In this document: positions 3,851 to 64,000 of the stretch, one piece after another
Position numbering within the stretch: position 1 is the first letter of the stretch
Layout of the letters: each line of letters begins with the position of its first letter
Position numbers and translations under genes: made by a program
Notes under the pieces: model-generated
What the model was told of the DNA's origin: nothing
Databases searched by the model: none
Seen by the model: the letters and a program-made list of their open reading frames with translations, nothing else
NCBI RefSeq assembly: GCF_018350175.1
Contig: NC_058368.1
Coordinates: 30,630,001 to 30,694,000 of the forward strand
DNA length: 64,000 bases
Source: Felis catus
Taxonomy: Eukaryota
Reading direction: 5' to 3'

Positions 3851-4075
3851 ATTTATTTATTAAAAAAAATTTTTTTAATGTTTATTTATTTTTGAGACAG
3901 AGACAGAGCACGAATGGGGGAGGGACAGAGAGAGAGTGAGACACAGAATCCGAAGCAGGCTCCAGGCTCTGAGCTGTCAGCACAGAGCCTGATGCGGGGC
4001 TCGAACCCATGGACCGTGAGATCATGACCTGAGCTGAAATCAGAAGCTCAACCGACTGAGCCACCCAGGCGCCCC
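3851..4075 (-). mobile_element. Carnivore SINE (SINEC_Fc type)
   Basis: Reverse complement of ggggcgcctgggtggctcag head, (CT)n region and A tail; imperfect TSD cctgtggactttta/cctgtcatctttta. Confidence 0.97.
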
Positions 4076-4325: not shown

Positions 4326-4881
4326 CTGTCTCCGCTGCATATTAGTAAGCCTGCAGCAAGTTTGTGTCATTTTGTGTCATTTCCCCTGGTTTCCTCTATC
4401 TCTCAGGTAAAATTTAAGCATGAAACATGCATACTGTTTCGCAAAGGCGTTTCACATTTGTCCTATCTCCTTTGCCTGTGTGCAAATTTCTAACGCAACC
4501 ATGGAAGTCTACATTGGCCCGCGGATTGCCCTGCATTACCAAATTGTAAATAAGAGCAGAATGTTAGGATTCAGCTAATACTAGAAATGCTGCAGCCTTA
4601 CATTTTCTTCACATGAAAAACCATATGAATGTCCTTTTAATACAAAGACTTTTCTTCTGTATTTTAGTCCTGGCTGCTGTGTTTTTAACTTTTCATTCTG
4701 CTGGGGAGATTAAAGACAGAGGATCATTATGAGTCTTCTAAGAAGCCAAGGGACTGCAGTTAGATTAAAAGCTATTTATTCTGCACTTTGTATTTTCTTT
4801 GGTCCTTATTTTCAGATTGAACATAAGGTATCTGCAGCACAGATTGCTTTCAGAAAGATGAATTTGACTAAAAATCATACT

Positions 4882-10369: not shown

Positions 10370-10498
10370 TCACAGATAAAATTTTAAGACATATGTGAAA
10401 AATTGCACAACATTCAAAGGACCAAGTCATCATGGATTGCATTCAATAGAAATTATAGCATCAGATATGCTAAGAATTCAAGAAGTATCTATTTCAGA

Positions 10499-10503
<5 letters not shown>

Positions 10504-10548
<45 letters not shown>
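10504..10548. repeat. (CA)n microsatellite, ~22 units
   Basis: Uninterrupted AC run. Confidence 0.99.
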
Positions 10549-10554
<6 letters not shown>

Positions 10555-10557
10555 GAT

Positions 10558-10912
10558 TGTCTTAGCCTTCAAGTTGCTGTAACTAAATGTTACAGACTGC
10601 ATAGGTTATAAGCTTCAGAAAATTATGTTTCATAGTCTAGAGGCTGGAAGTCCAAAACCAAGGCACTGGCAGTTTTGGTGTCTAGTGAGGGACTACTTTC
10701 TGGTTCACAGTGCCTTGTGGCTGTGTTGTGACATGTGAGAGGGGCTAGGGAGCTCTGTAGAATCTCTTTATAGGGCACTAATCCCATTCTTGAAGTCTCC
10801 ACCCTTTTGACCTAATCACTTAACAAAGATCCATCTTGTAGTACCATTGTCTTTGATGTTTGGGATTTCAACATATGAATTTTAGGGGGACATAAACGTT
10901 CAAACCATAACA
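10558..10912 (-). mobile_element. MaLR solo LTR, MLT1A-like
   Basis: TG...CA ends, perfect 5-bp TSD atgat (10553-10557, 10913-10917), blocks gaggctggaagtccaa, gggcactaatcccatt, ttcaacatatgaattt. Confidence 0.92.
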
Positions 10913-31326: not shown

Positions 31327-31626
31327 TCCTTTATTTATTTCTAATAATTAGTAACAGATCTCTGTAAAATGAAAGCTTGTCCAGAAAGAGCAGGAAACTG
31401 AGAAGACTATCTCTGTCCTGGTGCCACACTCCCTTTTCCCTGGTCTTAGGAAACGCTCAGACCTAGTGCCCGGGAAAAGTGGTCCACTTGTGTCCTAGGA
31501 ATGGTCTTTTATTAAAAAACAGAGAAGACTCAAGGTGCTACTCTCTGACGCTTCATAATCATCTATCACCATGTAAGATATACACAGTGAAGTTACTAAT
31601 GACTTAAATTTATTTTTTATTTTTCT

Positions 31627-31848
31627 TTTTAAAAATTTTTTTTTTCAACATTTATTTATTTTTGGGACAGAGAGAGACAGAGCATGAACAGGGGAGGGGC
31701 AGAGAGAGAGGGAGACACAGAATCGGAAACAGGCTCCAGGCTCTGAGCCATCAGCCCAGAGCCCGACGCGGGGCTCGAACTCACGGACCACGAGATCGTG
31801 ACCTGGCTGAAGTCGGACGCTTAACCGACTGCGCCACCCAGGCGCCTC
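31627..31848 (-). mobile_element. Young felid SINE (SINEC_Fc)
   Basis: Near-identical to 27434-27645; perfect 16-bp TSD tattttttatttttct at 31611-31626 and 31849-31864. Confidence 0.99.
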
Positions 31849-34522
31849 TATTTTTTATTTTTCTAAAGAAACATTTTGTCAAATATGAAATGAGAGAAAT
31901 CTATTTGGTTTCAAAGATTACTCATGCTTTCCTTGCCCAGGTAAAGAGTACCAGAGTGGCTGTAAAAACAATGTTAATGTTTTTGGGGAGGCTAAAACAT
32001 TTCTGCTATATGATACATCCAAAGCTACATCATGAAAATGATACATTAGTACAATTTTTAAGGAAGCTTTCAGAACCAAAGATCCAAAGAAATTCCCACA
32101 ATAATTATTCTTTCTATTTAATCTTTGCTGGTTTCCTTCCAAGATCTTTTAGAATGCCTTTCTTTTTCCTGTTTTCTTTCATCACTATTAACTTTTTATT
32201 TAGGCAATCCTGCTTTTTGTCACAATTATGAGACTTTTACATTTAGAAAACTATGGTTAATATTCTCTGAAGTCAATTAGATATTCCCCTGGCATAAATA
32301 TAAACTATAAGATTTGCTATTTTTTACTGTCCATTTTTTTTTTTTTTACCAATCAACTGTGAACTTGTTTTCACACCAAGCACTATGCCTGGCACAAGGA
32401 CAATGGTTATGAATTCTTTGGTAAATGGATGGCAGTGTTATCTGCCAGAATTCTACAAACACTCACAGGATCTGAACGATTTTAAACTCTTTCAATTGAG
32501 CAATTGCTATACAACAATACGATTTTTGCCCTTACAGCTAGAATTTTGTTGGCTTCATGATAAGTGTTTATTGATGATGCTGTCAATGACACAGTCATCA
32601 GAATAAAAAATGAAAAAGCATAGATCCCCTTGCAAGAGAAGGATGGATAATAAGCTTCTGTTTCCTCCTGAATTACATATTGTACAAACACAGAACAAAT
32701 ATTTATATGAACAGGTAAATAATTTCTCTTGTTTAGACAGGTTAAAAGAAGATTTCCTTCATGGTGGAGACATAGTCATTGCTTTAGGTAGAATGCATAA
32801 TACCCTTGTTTACAGTCTTAAGGGAATAATTCACGTGTGTGTATTTGTGTGCATGTGTGTGTGTGTTTTCCCTACTTGCTTTTTTATTTCATTTGCATTT
32901 CCAAACTGATTCTTCATTTCAGAAGCTCAAATTGATTCATTTGAGCAGCCTTCCAAATCTTCCACTGCGCTTACATTGTTCAGTGACATGTACTCCTTCC
33001 CCCTACCCCAACACTCATAATCCCCATCTCAGTACTAGAAGAGTGCTTTATCACCTATCCATGGTGGCTATTAATAGGCTGCTGAGCTAACTTGTCATTT
33101 CTGAAGTTTATTTTTATATGAAAGAAGGATAACATTTTGTTGTTTTTCTGCTTATGTAATTGCTGTGCTTAAAGAAAGAACCTTTTGTTTTTACAGTTTT
33201 CAAATTTTTTGTGAGTCTATCCATTAAACAGATTTGGAACAACAGGTAAATGGTATTGAACTGTGATTTGTGCATCTTTCATGCCCTGTTGATTTTGAGA
33301 TAAATCAAGATTTCATTTCCTCATTTTATGAGTAAGATAAAAATCTGATTTCCAAAAATAAGCAAACAAAACAAAAACAATTTACACACGGCATTCTCTC
33401 TGTTATACCAGTGAGCTGTTTACACCCTCATATTGTAGCATTCCAAACAGTTCTTATATAAGATATTAGAGCAACTAGCCTACAGAAGCATGCTGGGAAT
33501 TGCATGCCGTTACGGTGTAAAATAATGCAGGTCCCACGAGGCCAAGGCCCGTGCTTAGCTTTCTTTATTACCAGTGCCATCAGATAGTGTAGCACACGGT
33601 GCACGCTCAAGAAGTGTTTGAGAAAAAGGCAGCCTGGAATAAACAGTTCCGTAGGAAATGCATGCCAGCTTGCAGTCTTAAATTACTTTCATTTGTATTT
33701 ATACATATACGTGAAGTTTCATGAGTAGTAAGAAAATAATAGTTAATTTTTTGAACAGCTCTTGGATGCTAGGCAGTGTGCTAAGGACCGTTATAATTAC
33801 TCTTTCAATTTTAGGAGGTCAATTTTAGCCCACTTAGAAGATGAGGAAAATGAGGGACGAGAGTGTATCTGGAGTCCTTTAAATGCAGAAGGGTTTTCTC
33901 CATCTGAGATAGTGTAAATGTGGCTGTGTTTGAAGTTAGGTGAGAGATAAGATACACTTTTATGTATTCTGGTTTGGGGAAACCATGACTCAATTAATCT
34001 CCACCTGATTCTGCCATGTTGACTTAGAAAAATGACTTGCTAACTTAGGTTTTTCAAAGCAGTAGAATTTAAAATGAAATTAAAATGCATATTAGCAATT
34101 AAGCAAGGGTATGTTTCTTCCTCTTTATAGAGATGGTGGTTTAGGTTTACCATTTCAAACACCGGTGAAAATAAAAACGTAAAATATGACAGACCAAAGG
34201 CCAAAACAACCACTGTATCATCTATTAATGCAATTTCAAGGCAACTGGCACCATGGTGTCTCTTTTCCCAGATAGCGATATTACTATTTAATCCGTGATT
34301 ATAAATTTAAGAGTAAACATTAATAGTTGATGCCATTTGATTAAAATGAAAATCGCCCCAAATCTTTGGGGATTGTCACCCATTCCTTGTTTACAGATGC
34401 ATGAAACTTGAACATTTTCCTTTTAACATTAGAATTGGCTTCGCTTATAAATCCCATCACCGACCCAGAGGGTGTTTCTGCATAGCTGTCAGGGATGGAT
34501 AGATTCAAAAGAGGCAGCAGGC

Positions 34523-50568: not shown

Positions 50569-51480
50569 CATTCATTCCTTCATTTTTCATTCCACGCGTG
50601 TCTATTGAGTGTCTATCATGTGTTAGATCAGTATTCTAGGTGTGGGGATGATGAGGTCATTGATGAGGAAAAAAATGTCCGCATTGCACTTATATTCTGT
50701 TTGTGCGGGAGACACAAAAATAAAATTGGACACGTTAACTAATAGTATGATAGGTACTGACAGGAGAAAAAGTAAAGCAGGGAGAATGTGAAATGTTGGA
50801 GGGAGATTGAGGTTTTTGGTAGGTGTCAGGGAAGGCTTCAGAGAGCAGACTTTTGAATGAGGGCCTGCAGCCATTGAGGGAACTGACCTGAGTATTTCAG
50901 GCGAAGGAGAGAGCAGGTGCAAAGACCCTGAAATGGGAGCATGCTGGTTTGAGTGATCGGGATGGTATGGTCTGAGCACAGAGAAGGACAGGGAGTGAAA
51001 AGAGGTAAGGTTGGAAAGATCATGGGAAGTCAGATCACACAGACCTTCCACATAAAAAAATTTGTCTTGTATGCTGATTGAGAAGAGAGATCTCTGGAGG
51101 ATTTTGAGAAAACATTGTTGAGCCTATTTGTAAAAGCATTAGCTTTGCAGTCCCATTCAGGCAAGGATCCAGGGAGTCCAGGAGAGTGGCAAGAAAAGCA
51201 GACCATTGTATTCATCCACGTGACAGATGGTGGTGGTTTGACCAAGGGGATGGGCAGTGGAGTGGTGAGAAAGAGTTAGAGTGCGAGTATATTTAGAAAG
51301 CAGAACTGAGTAGGCTTTTTGAGAAAAAGAGATTTTTAAAGGAATTGTCACGTCTTTTGGCCAAACCAACTAGAAATAAAAGATGCTAACTGAGGTAGGG
51401 AGGATTATAGAATCGATTGGTTTAGTAGGGCATTTTAGGAGTGACTGTATTCGAACCATAGCATAACTGTAATATAGTGA
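50569..51480 (-). mobile_element. L2 3' ~900 bp
   Basis: cattcattcc tail; tcagggaaggcttc, gtgcaaagaccctgaaatgggagcatgctgg, gatggtggtggtttgaccaagg blocks. Confidence 0.88.
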
Positions 51481-51481
51481 G

Positions 51482-51799
51482 TATAGCAGGATTCTTGCAT
51501 AGAGAGTGATGACACAGAGGCTCTTCTTTCCAAGATGCAACTTTATTCCTGCTGGCACCACGTAGGTGGGTTCGTACCCAAAGAACTGAGCCCCGAATGC
51601 CACGTGGCGTAGTTTTTTTTTTTTTATATATTTTTTTACTTCTTTGTCTCCCCAAAATGGTAACACACAAGAATGTTGTCTGATTAAGTGGTCACATGTT
51701 AGAAGGTCATGAGGGAATTTGTCACATATGGGTATAGCCAGGTTGCCTTGAGGTTTTTTTTTTTTTTTTTTTTTTCCTTAGGGAAGGGACCCTACCACA
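51482..51799 (-). mobile_element. Solo ERV LTR (318 bp), probably carnivore-specific
   Basis: Minus strand: tgtggtaggg start, TATATAAA, ggggctcagttctttg, AATAAAG, ...ctgctata end; near-TSD tgag/tgaa. Confidence 0.8.
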
Positions 51800-51806
51800 T
51801 GAAGTC

Positions 51807-57937: not shown

Positions 57938-58195
57938 CTGGTTCTTAGCCAGGAAATTTTGCCCTGGCCAGAGAAGAGGAGATAATCTGTGGACATTTTT
58001 TTTTTTAAATTATTTTTTTAGTTTTAGCGAGAGGGAGACAAAGATTGAGAGAACACAAGCAGGGGAGAAGAACAGAGGAAGAGAGGGAATCCCAAGTGTG
58101 GAGCCTGACGTGAGCTTCAATCCCACAACCCTGGGATCATGACCTGAGCTGAAGCCGAGAGTCGGATGCTTAACCGACTGAGCCACCCCTCCCTG

Positions 58196-58239
<44 letters not shown>

Positions 58240-58445
58240 ATTTTTAGAGAGTGAAAGAGCATGAGCAGTGGACAGTTTTGGTAGTCACAACTGGAAGGGT
58301 AGGTCCCACTGACAGATAAAGGCTAGGGATGCTGTTAAGTATCCTACAATGCACAGGACAGCCTACTACCACCACCACTAACACACACAGCAAAAAAGTA
58401 TCTGGTTCAAAACATAAATGCTAATGCCGAGGTTAGCAAAACCTG
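57938..58445 (+). mobile_element. MER20 DNA transposon, split by a composite SINE insertion
   Basis: ctggttct...attttgccc left arm; ttttggtagtcacaactgg...agggatgctgttaagtatcctacaatgcacaggacagcc right arm. Confidence 0.88.
58001..58193 (-). mobile_element. Carnivore SINE (older subtype) inside MER20
   Basis: gggatcatgacctgagctgaa...ttaaccgactgagccaccc. Confidence 0.93.
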
Positions 58446-60224: not shown

Positions 60225-61314
60225 GAAAAAAAAATTACCTTCCCACTACATTTTCAACACACAGTACAAAGGAAAGCCAAATGTAATAATCACTCCTATT
60301 CAAAGAGGGGAAGAAAGGGAATCACACAGTAGTCATTGATAGACAGCTATTGTGAAAGGCCAATGGGTGGATGCTGTGAGACCCTTTATTCTGGGTATCA
60401 GTGATATTCTTTGATAGGCTCCACTTCTGTCCTGTGACTAGCTCTCAAGTTCATTGTTCTCCAAGGCTTTGACTCAACCCTCTCGGTGGTCTTTCCTGTT
60501 CTACGATACTTCTTCCCGACATCTGAGGGAGGCATGGAAGAAAGGCCTCCTCCTTGGTGCTGAGCTGCATTCTCAGTCTGCCACCTGTCCTTACAAAAGT
60601 TGGGGGCCAATAATTGTTTTACTTCAACACTCAGTCTTTTTTGGTCTAGCTTTACAGCACTTTTGGCAATATAACTCTCTCAAACTTTTTAATATATTTG
60701 ATTCTACTCACCACCATGTGCCAATATATCTATAGACTTACAGACATTTTGAGATTATTAGACTTCTATAGATTGTGTTCTTAGCTACTTTTCGCTGAGC
60801 CATTTTGTTGGGGGAAAAAAAATACTGGAAGACCTCTTAATCCAATCAAAGGTCTTAACAAAAAGTCCCTCAGACTGGTCTTTCTTCCCAGCTCTCTCTC
60901 AATGTGAGTCATTTAAAGTCTTGAAGAGACTGGAGAGGAGAATCGGTTGCATCTTTGAACTTTGAAAGTTCAGGGATATTTGGATTCTCTTGTTCGCTTC
61001 TTATTCCTTCTAGTAAATAGGCCAATCATTTCCTGAGCTCATTGCCTTCTCTTGATGCTTATCAACTGCAGCTAGGAACAAGCTACTTGCGCTGAGTATT
61101 CTGTCTCCAAATCTCCTTGCCCAAACCTGAAGATTCCAGAGTCTTCCTTGTGAGTTACTTTGGGTGACAGTGTTGCCACGTATCTGGCCATAAAATGTCA
61201 CCATTTGCCTGGCCTCAAATAAATTCCTGTGCTGCTTTCCACTCAGCTGCATAGCCACATGACCCGTTCCTCAGGTTTTTGCTCTGCCAGCACCCACCTC
61301 CCGGGTATCCGTTT
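60225..61314 (-). mobile_element. MaLR internal sequence (MLT1-int)
   Basis: cactcctattcaaagagggg block; LTR junction cagcacccacctcccgggtatccgtttc. Confidence 0.65.
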
Positions 61315-61760
61315 CGATATACCCTATTGCTACAGTGGTGCTATGAACCCAGTACTCCTCAGATGCCAGTGGTTTGCAAAAATCTGTATTGATTTCTCAT
61401 CCACAGATCTGGATTGGCTGCAGCAGCCCTACTCCAGGCCCTGGGCCAGTTGCTGGTTTGCACCACATACCCTCTCACTCAAGAATGTAGTCTGAAGGAG
61501 CAGCTCTTACATGGGCACACTGTTGTCCTGCTACAGCAGAGAGGCCAGGAGGGATTTCAGTGGATCAGTAAGCTTGTAGTGACCCAGAAAGAGTCCACTC
61601 AAACATGGCTCTTGGACTTTTACCCCTGTTCCATTGGCCGGTGCACATCGTGTGGCCAAGTGCAACATCAATGGGATGGGCGGTGAGTATTCCTCCCAGG
61701 GCAGGTGCACAGGGGAAAGTGGATCTTACTCTAATATACTAATACTCTAATATAATCCTC
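61315..61760 (-). mobile_element. MaLR LTR, MLT1H-like, attached to the internal sequence
   Basis: ctattgctacag start; ttccattggcc...tggccaagtgcaacatcaatgggatggg block. Confidence 0.7.
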
Positions 61761-61781
61761 TATAAGAATTCAGTGTGTGTT

Positions 61782-61928
61782 GGGGTGCCTGGGTGGCTCA
61801 GCAGTTAAGCATCTGACTTCTGCTCAGGTTATGATCTCGGTTCCTGGGTTTGAGCCCTGTGTCGGGCTCTGTGTTGACAGCTTAGAGCCTGGAGCCTGCT
61901 TCAGATTCTGTGTCTCCTTCTCTCTTCC

Positions 61929-61976
<48 letters not shown>

Positions 61977-62010
61977 GTCTCTGTCTCAAATAAATATTAA
62001 AAAACAAAAG
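61782..62010 (+). mobile_element. Carnivore SINE with long (CT)n
   Basis: TSD tcagtgtgtgt at 61770-61780 and 62011-62021. Confidence 0.97.
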
Positions 62011-62103
62011 TCAGTGTGTGTGTGTGTGTGCAGGGTATGTGTTGGAGTCTATGTGGATCCATAGGAATCAATGTTTCCTTGGATTTGTAAACACTTGTGT
62101 TTA

Positions 62104-62135
62104 AAGACTATACTTTCAGGGATCATTTCTATAGT
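62104..62135 (+). pseudogene. U3: 3'-truncated (tailless) U3 snoRNA retropseudogene
   Basis: aagactatactttcagggatcatttctatagt equals the first 32 nt of mammalian U3 snoRNA as recalled; flanked by 17-bp direct repeats gtaaacacttg[t/g]gttta (62087-62103, 62138-62154); no poly-A. Confidence 0.92.
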
Positions 62136-64000
62136 TGGTAAACACTTGGGTTTAAAAAAGCAGTGGTATTTGAAAACACCAGCATTTCCTTTCTTCTGAG
62201 TATTCAGAGTAGGCATATTCACAAAACAATAAAAAAGAATAATTCACCTAATTCTTTTCATACACCATAAAATATAATTCAGAGGGTGAGGATGTATCCA
62301 CTTTCTGTCAGCTGTTTAAAAAATATGGCCTGGAGTTATTGTGTGCTCTTTAAGGTCACTTAGACATTATGAAACTCGTAATTAAATTTAAAGTTTGGTT
62401 TGCTAGCTTGATGCTTATTCTTAATTGAAAGAGATTAATTACCTTTCAAAGAAAAGTTTTAGAAAAGACTGTTTCAAATTCTACACGTCCATAAATATGG
62501 CATGTTTGCTATGGAACAAAGAGCATAATTTGCCACAGATTTTGAGAAATAATACTTAACCTGAACATTTCTTTGATGTTTTAGCTTAATTCTGGCGCAT
62601 CAGCCAGGAGAAAAATAGAGTACTCAAGTATCAATTTAACATGGAAGAGAGATGACTTTGTCATTAAAAATCAATCAAAAGTAAACCTTCAAAGTTCAAA
62701 AAGGAAAACTATTAAAATGAAAAAATGGCTTTTATAAGTAATTTTACTTTAAAATTTTAATAAACGCATTAAAATAAATATAATTTAATGAAAGAATAAC
62801 ACTGATCTGTTGCCATGGAAAAACCTCTTTGATACTATAATGACAAAAAATTTTTAGATTAAAAGAAAATCTTCACGAGCGAGAAGAAAATGATGTATTG
62901 TTGAGGAAGAAAAAAAACACAGGAAGGAAGAAACTCGCATCACAGGAATAAGTTACTGTTCACCAGACATCCGAGGGGGCTGCAGGGCCCCACAAGGAGA
63001 GCGAGAATCCTCCCCTAAAACGGACCTTAGTGGAAAGGACTTTTTTCTTCCAGCTCTGGGAAGTGTTCTAACATAGGTTAAGTCTCCAGCTTAGGACTGG
63101 AATGCACAGACAAGGGTCTGTGCCAACTCCTCGGTTTTGTTTAGTAGAACGTCCAAACTAAGCGTGCTTGAAACTCCTGCTCTAGGTAACTGTTCACTTG
63201 AGTGTGACGGGTTCTTTCTCACTAGGCTTTCAACTTCTTTTCTCGTACATGACCTCCTCCGTGTTTGGCCTGATGCATTCGCCTGCCACCAGGAGCCTGA
63301 GGAATGTCACGGCATGAATGCAAAGACAACAGGAGAGAGGCTATTCCACGGACGCCCAAGATGATGACTTTTCAGGTCCCCAGTAAGGCCATAGGCTTGG
63401 GGTTTGGTTTTACCTGAAGGGAAAAGTATTGTCTAAATTTCTCCATTGACTTCTCTAACTTTCTCCAAAGCCTGGATTTCTTAATGGTAGAATTTTCATA
63501 CTTGAGGGAGCGGAGACAACAGCCCAGAGCCCTCTGTCCCAGTTCATCTCGGTATGGAGGTGGAGTGAGGAAGGAGAGCTTGTTTGACCCCTGTTCGGGT
63601 CTTCCACTTTGTGGGAGTCAAGTGACTTATGCCATCTGGCAGGGTGGAGGGGAAAATGTAGACATGAAGGTCTTTGATCTCATTTCCTGTCAGAACACTG
63701 TGGGGAAATCGATGTGGGGGCTAGAGCACCAGCTGTAGGGTGGTTGCCTCAGGTTGGAAGAGGCAGTTCACTGTGGGAAGACAGCCGTGTGCAGGAGGGT
63801 AGGCTCCAGTGTTGGTAAAGTGATTCAAAGGGAGGGTACAGAAGGAAGCCAGGTGGGCTGGCTGATAAGCATGTTGGGGAGATGTGGAGGGAGGGCGGTC
63901 ATTGTAACTGAGTGAAAAGGCTCTGAAGTCAAGAGCTGCCCTGCAGCTCACCTGGGTGAGGAACTACATGTGAATTATTGCTAGACTTTTAGAGCCAGAA

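Follow-up and report, generated by a model that had tools for sequence, protein, structure and literature searches.

A tailless U3 snoRNA retropseudogene at a palindromic target site in the cat genome

A real and well-preserved tailless retropseudogene of the U3 snoRNA lies near the end of a 64-kb stretch of Felis catus DNA (the window, whose positions are used throughout). It begins at the first nucleotide of U3, breaks off after the first stem-loop without an A tail, and is bracketed by a direct repeat longer than chance would give. We consider it very probable that LINE-1 made the copy by internal priming (target-primed reverse transcription). The cat locus is a further tailless U3 copy, and its sequence suggests that it is ordinary and inert and would matter little as it stands; at most it may be useful as a presence/absence marker for carnivore phylogeny.

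Identification of the U3 copy

Using cmscan, the Rfam U3 model (RF00012) was matched on the + strand from 62104 at model position 1 (E 4e-5, 31.2 bits), which bears out the original prediction of a U3 5′ end starting at nt 1. This is the sole Rfam match with E < 1 across 61800–62500. Over 62104–62135, 29 of 32 positions match the Rfam consensus, including 20 of the 20 upper-case positions (alignment judged by eye), and we take this segment to be nt 1–32 of mammalian U3, letter for letter. What the model aligns after about nt 36 is forced and does not represent U3; the U3 portion is 32–36 nt out of the 219 positions of the model. Its stem-loop presumably carries boxes A′ and A. In U3 itself these boxes are placed in the 5′ stem-loop (PMC7430653).

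The gathering score of RF00012 is 34 bits, and since the match falls short of this curated cut-off, Rfam annotation would miss the copy: at the gathering threshold a single match, to a tRNA-like SINE head at 3986–4070, remains in the whole window, and none to U3. The locus is to that extent a reminder that the cut-off misses copies this small. As for a functional U3 snoRNA gene, which would be full length, with hinges, C′/D and B/C boxes and a score of at least 34 bits, only the first 32–36 nt are present. The A tail is likewise absent, as had been noticed from the sequence beforehand, the longest A run within 62130–62150 being 3.

The presence of the filled site was checked in sequencing runs. 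In 20 of the 24 listed runs, from one organism, all of the 159 words sampled from 62030–63500 are found (fraction 1.00); 14 of these 20 runs are possibly the window's own source, and 6 are from 6 further studies. Three runs of a second organism contain 0.04 of the words, which is neutral as evidence. Since 20 runs hold every sampled word, the U3-filled allele appears to be real and common rather than an artefact of assembly, although the words were sampled across 62030–63500 as a whole; an empty allele may also exist.

Table 1. Features of the U3 locus, in window coordinates
Feature	Coordinates	Strand	Basis and remarks
Left target-site duplication copy	62087..62103	+	17-bp core, starts GTAAACA; extendable to 62084-62105 with two mismatches
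Palindrome in left copy	62088..62103	.	Perfect 7-bp arms 62088-62094 and 62097-62103, 2-nt loop
U3 snoRNA 5′ end, nt 1-32	62104..62135	+	Rfam alignment from model position 1, E 4e-5
Ambiguous 3′ junction	62136..62139	+	Alignment and inference
Right target-site duplication copy	62138..62154	+	Differs from left at 62149, breaking palindrome; GTAAACA kept
T/A step, downstream duplication edge	62150..62159	.	Consensus scoring; role inferred
Composite 75-nt hairpin	62084..62158	+	29-nt arms, 76% complementary

The flanking duplication

The U3 segment lies between direct repeats (62084–62105 and 62135–62156) that are identical at 20 of 22 positions with a spacing of 51. The mismatches fall at left coordinates 62086 and 62098, so the 17-mer core is identical at 16 of 17, as had been predicted together with the spacing. 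At both differences (62086/62137 and 62098/62149) the left copy has T and the right copy G, which may be chance. With 1 difference in 34 repeat sites, divergence could lie anywhere from 0.07 to 16% per site, a range too wide for dating.

The original prediction gave the insert as 32 nt. There are indeed 32 clear U3 bases, but the 17-mers enclose 34 (62104–62137, that is, 51 minus 17), of which 2 are other bases. These two, 62136–62137, may be U3 nt 33–34 or a mutated repeat edge, while 62138–62139 are common to the repeat and to U3 consensus positions 35–36 and are a candidate priming microhomology. Three readings of the junction follow, under which the duplication would be 14, 17 or about 20 bp long.

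To put the locus and control positions under a common rule, we assumed a 32-nt insert and searched for repeats with one mismatch, ending at most 3 bases from the insert start and beginning −3 to +15 from the insert end. By this rule the locus gives 19 bp, whereas none of 3980 control positions reaches 17, the longest being 15. The flanking repeat exceeds chance.

These results bear on the least probable of the explanations weighed here, which we regard as extremely unlikely: that the locus is what a 3′ deletion left of a longer U3 copy or of a U3/LINE-1 chimera, or that a U3 fragment and a local duplication were juxtaposed by chance. Chimeras with truncated U3 do exist, and those described (10.1101/2025.02.02.635956) resemble the cat locus in having a truncated 5′ U3 piece in sense orientation; the cat locus, however, has no LINE-1 or A-tail sequence between U3 and the right repeat. 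A deletion would have had to stop at most 2 bases short of that repeat and to remove every LINE-1 or A-tail base, and chance juxtaposition is opposed by the control search, where repeats this long did not occur.

Comparison with known tailless copies

Schmitz et al. in 2004 are said to have named the tailless retropseudogene class. Earlier, Bernstein, Mount and Weiner (1983) reportedly described self-primed U3 pseudogenes about 70 nt long. The cat locus is like these in its 5′ U3 part, the lack of a tail and the flanking direct repeats, but its copy is half as long and has homology to the target at its 3′ end. Tailless snoRNA copies were also reported by Kojima (2010), where LINE-1 duplication lengths peak at 14–16 bp (PMC2912911).

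The filters given by Noll et al. (2015, PMC5322556) allow up to 5 nt missing at the 5′ end and ask for a 3′ truncation of at least 10 nt, a length of at least 30 nt, more than 69% identity to the source consensus, no oligo(A) tail, and repeats of 8–35 nt that are at least 70% identical and at most 15 nt from the 3′ end. In the cat copy the alignment begins at model position 1 (62104), 32–36 nt of 219 are kept with 29 of 32 identical to the consensus, no A run in 62130–62150 exceeds 3, and the repeats (16 of 17, or 20 of 22) are separated from U3 by no more than 2 nt, with none of the 3980 controls reaching 17. All of this falls within the sequence filters, and the original assignment to a known class, that of 3′-truncated, tailless U3 retrocopies with a target-site duplication, holds.

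The cat is outside the genomes covered by that screen, as described, and U3 copies are counted there in human only. Its supplement gives 38 human tailless U3 copies, or 37 without duplications (PMC5322556). From the published coordinates we calculated lengths of 32–88 nt with a median of 42; 16 of the 38 are at most 40 nt long, 4 are at most 35 nt and 8 fall at 65–77 nt. With 38 such copies catalogued, 16 of them no longer than 40 nt, the class, the source RNA and the size were already known. The expectation that a copy this short is easily missed is therefore right for the Rfam curated cut-off, but does not extend to the class, which a screen with a 30-nt floor has not overlooked. The cat locus shares with this U3 subset the source RNA, intact 5′ end, 3′ truncation, lack of an A tail, target-site duplication and length; it differs in species and site, in its palindromic target, and in departing from their logo, TT/WAAAAWW.

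A second comparison is with the truncated snRNA copies of Doucet et al. (2015, PMC4476161), which are attributed to internal initiation where a single-stranded stretch of the RNA pairs with the nicked target. LINE-1 internal initiation, short complementarity at the junction and homology 5′ of the cleavage site would be common to both. The spliceosomal snRNAs treated there are primed at purine-rich stretches, whereas the bases shared at the cat locus are not purine-rich.

Origin of the insertion

We infer the following course of events. In a germ-line setting, LINE-1 ORF2p would have nicked the bottom strand of the empty site near 62086–62089, and the freed 3′ end, rather than annealing to a poly(A) tail, would have found a few complementary bases in U3 RNA at about nt 32–37, just 3′ of the first stem-loop. 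Reverse transcription would then have run through to the U3 5′ end, and a top-strand nick 14–20 bases downstream, at a T/A step, would have primed the second strand, such that the target was duplicated. This matches the original suggestion of an L1-made copy, which we find the likeliest origin, and priming at nt 33–37 is plausible given the consensus match at 35–36, or 4 of 5 over 32–36.

In a sense-oriented copy the bottom strand should be nicked first, where the duplication begins on its upstream side. The candidates at 62087–62090 each have 2 mismatches to TTTT/AA, and about 8.5% of positions do as well. By pyrimidine/purine pattern the strongest of them is 62087 (5 of 6); a nick there would yield a 17-bp duplication, with the last two bases of the primer pairing with U3 consensus positions 35–36. 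The agreement of 4 of 5 bases over U3 32–36 would suit a nick at 62084–62085, the site with the longest microhomology, which has 5–6 mismatches to the endonuclease consensus. Complementarity at the breakpoint would be 2 nt, or 4 of 5, against a range of 2–18 nt in Noll et al. (PMC5322556), the reference here being the pan-eukaryote Rfam consensus. At the other edge, the step 62153/62154 is a candidate for the second nick on the top strand, where it has 1 mismatch to the LINE-1 endonuclease consensus.

The bottom strand of that same step is a perfect endonuclease site, the only one; under the standard polarity no such site is called for at this downstream edge, and its position counts against the account. 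So does the breakpoint, which is not clearly single-stranded as the truncation points of Noll et al. (PMC5322556) are: the fragment folded by itself has a stem that stops at nt 33, but in the Rfam consensus pairing continues to position 41 and leaves only 36 unpaired. In U3, the hinge that follows the stem-loop of boxes A/A′ is described as unpaired (PMC7430653).

Other features fit LINE-1. Its duplications are reported to span 7–20 nt, and we counted the repeat of 17–22 bp as fitting this range; the top-strand nick of ORF2p is placed 7–19 nt away and mostly off consensus (PMC7617806). In vitro the endonuclease is described as promiscuous, cutting many non-consensus sites (PMC12809410). The machinery has been active here, with 15 SINE-head matches in the window, 13 of which have a candidate target duplication.

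A first nick that follows the consensus only loosely would also be expected if a short U3 cDNA or RNA fragment had been captured at an existing staggered break, by endonuclease-independent LINE-1 priming or by end-joining, possibly favoured by the palindrome. The target is palindromic, with an arm of 7 against a largest arm of 4 and none above it among the 13 SINE duplications (automatic calls, some probably wrong), and the insert stops near where the stem-loop does, as a degradation fragment might. Against capture, the duplication is clean, 14–22 bp long and without a target deletion, which is typical of endonuclease-dependent insertion (PMC2912911, PMC7617806), and the readiness of the endonuclease to cut off consensus in vitro (PMC12809410) weakens the argument from the first nick. 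Among the SINE duplications, moreover, the start shows 2 mismatches in 3 of 13 and a larger number in 2 of 13. Finally, for 5S and U2 copies Noll et al. (2015, PMC5322556) found no truncated RNAs that correspond to the breakpoints. We consider capture at a break unlikely and retain LINE-1 internal priming as the probable origin.

The product would be inert, the insert having no promoter, no hinges, no C/D boxes, no U3 3′ domain and no A tail. The locus was also rejected as a source of miR-U3, which derives from about nt 40–90 of U3 (PMC7430653) and hence from outside the insert.

The palindrome and the composite hairpin

The left repeat was predicted to be a hairpin in itself, and it is one, with perfect arms; in the right copy the palindrome is broken. 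Such hairpins occur at 84 of the 63983 17-mers of the window (0.13%), in 40 sites. Modelled as a free structure the left-copy hairpin is weak (−2.6 kcal/mol, with 73 of 200 shuffles as good), and on these values we judge it too weak for extrusion unaided. The palindromic landing site is uncommon, though only slightly so, and it is a single case chosen after the fact.

The palindromic duplication lengthens the U3 stem at either side, and a 75-nt hairpin results. As RNA it has a predicted energy of −17.1 kcal/mol, and 16 of 786 GC-matched 75-mers are as stable; its z-scores are −2.06 as DNA and −1.78 as RNA. The palindrome also places a GTTT/A site on each strand, at 62088|62089 on the bottom and 62102|62103 on the top, as mirror images separated by 14 bases. 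Nick pairs by a looser rule (at most 2 mismatches below and at most 1 above, 12–18 apart) are found at 525 of 63960 positions.

From this a more adventurous idea can be drawn, to which we give very little credence: that the palindrome is not incidental but allowed symmetric nicks on both strands, and that it created in one step a 75-nt hairpin of about 23 pairs, a candidate microRNA-like gene if it is transcribed and cut by Drosha/Dicer. If true, a tailless snoRNA retrocopy could have given rise to a lineage-specific microRNA-like gene in one step, and the locus would matter more if the hairpin gave small RNAs. A literature search returned no paper in which microRNA hairpins come from palindromic duplications, and the two LINE-1 cleavage sites are described as generally not palindromic (PMC6895275). 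An enrichment of palindromic targets among tailless copies genome-wide would bear on how LINE-1 chooses its second nick, a choice that is still open (PMC7617806, PMC12809410).

Forkhead motifs

The duplication also doubled GTAAACA which, like the looser RYAAAYA, we take to be a forkhead motif. The copies at 62087 and 62138 are 51 bp apart, as originally predicted; of the 21 occurrences in the window (8 on the + strand, 13 on the −), no other two lie within 60 bp of each other. Shuffled sequence gives 10.5 occurrences of GTAAACA in 64 kb, with 1 of 100 shuffles reaching the 21 observed. For RYAAAYA there are 202 occurrences, and 52 pairs of neighbours lie no more than 60 bp apart. The chance that any 17-base duplication carries the motif is 0.4% for GTAAACA and 3% for RYAAAYA. 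No reverse-strand copy of either motif is present in the palindrome. A literature search on target duplications doubling a forkhead site found none by title or abstract opening.

The pair could have been kept for a regulatory role, as a paired forkhead site or through processing of the hairpin to a small RNA. Its singularity within 60 bp among 21 occurrences would speak for this, as would the rank of the 75-nt hairpin in the top 2% of GC-matched windows. A typical Drosha substrate, however, has a stem longer than about 23 pairs, the hairpin's z-scores are only −1.8 to −2.1, and its right arm is already mutated. The pair itself is a by-product of duplicating a motif found once per 3 kb (RYAAAYA, 3 per kb); the predicted doubling stands but the regulatory meaning attached to it is unsupported. 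Nor is a CpG island nearby (CpG o/e 0.15 at 62001–62500). The 64-kb window as a whole is AT-rich and apparently non-coding, none of its 39 stop-to-stop frames of at least 90 aa being recognisably protein-like by eye. We regard retention for a regulatory role as quite improbable, and prefer to see in the locus a presumably inert LINE-1 product.

Other features of the window

The 15 SINE matches in the window are to one tRNA-derived head, presumably that of carnivore CAN-SINEs. One SINE, at 61784–62007, stops some 80 bases short of the U3 copy, on its upstream side; it is tRNA-derived, with a (TC)n tract, an A-rich tail and then a short GT repeat, and has a candidate target duplication of 14–16 bp (61765–61780 and 62006–62021). 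Just upstream of it, 61240–61740 resembles what we take to be a decayed MLT1/MaLR long terminal repeat.

An E-value scan of 1–62000 against Rfam gave 6 matches, among which no second snRNA-type fragment was judged real. The weak matches to SCARNA7 at 10487–10641 (E 0.036, 25.8 of 65 bits) and SNORD10 at 4607–4745 (E 0.25) are far below the cut-offs and are probably chance or low complexity.

At 57998–58273, a minus-strand SINE-like copy stands beside a pure A run of about 50 bases (58181–58237) and further SINE-like bases; two insertions may abut or be nested here, or the assembly may have been joined at this point. A CpG-containing stretch of different character at 51460–51800, between L2-like sequence and a SINE and with T runs at its bounds, is perhaps a small retroviral-LTR or retrocopy fragment. 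The SINE at 31713–31846, which keeps many CpGs (o/e 0.68 in 31501–32000) and has a perfect 16-bp candidate target duplication, is probably among the youngest in the window.
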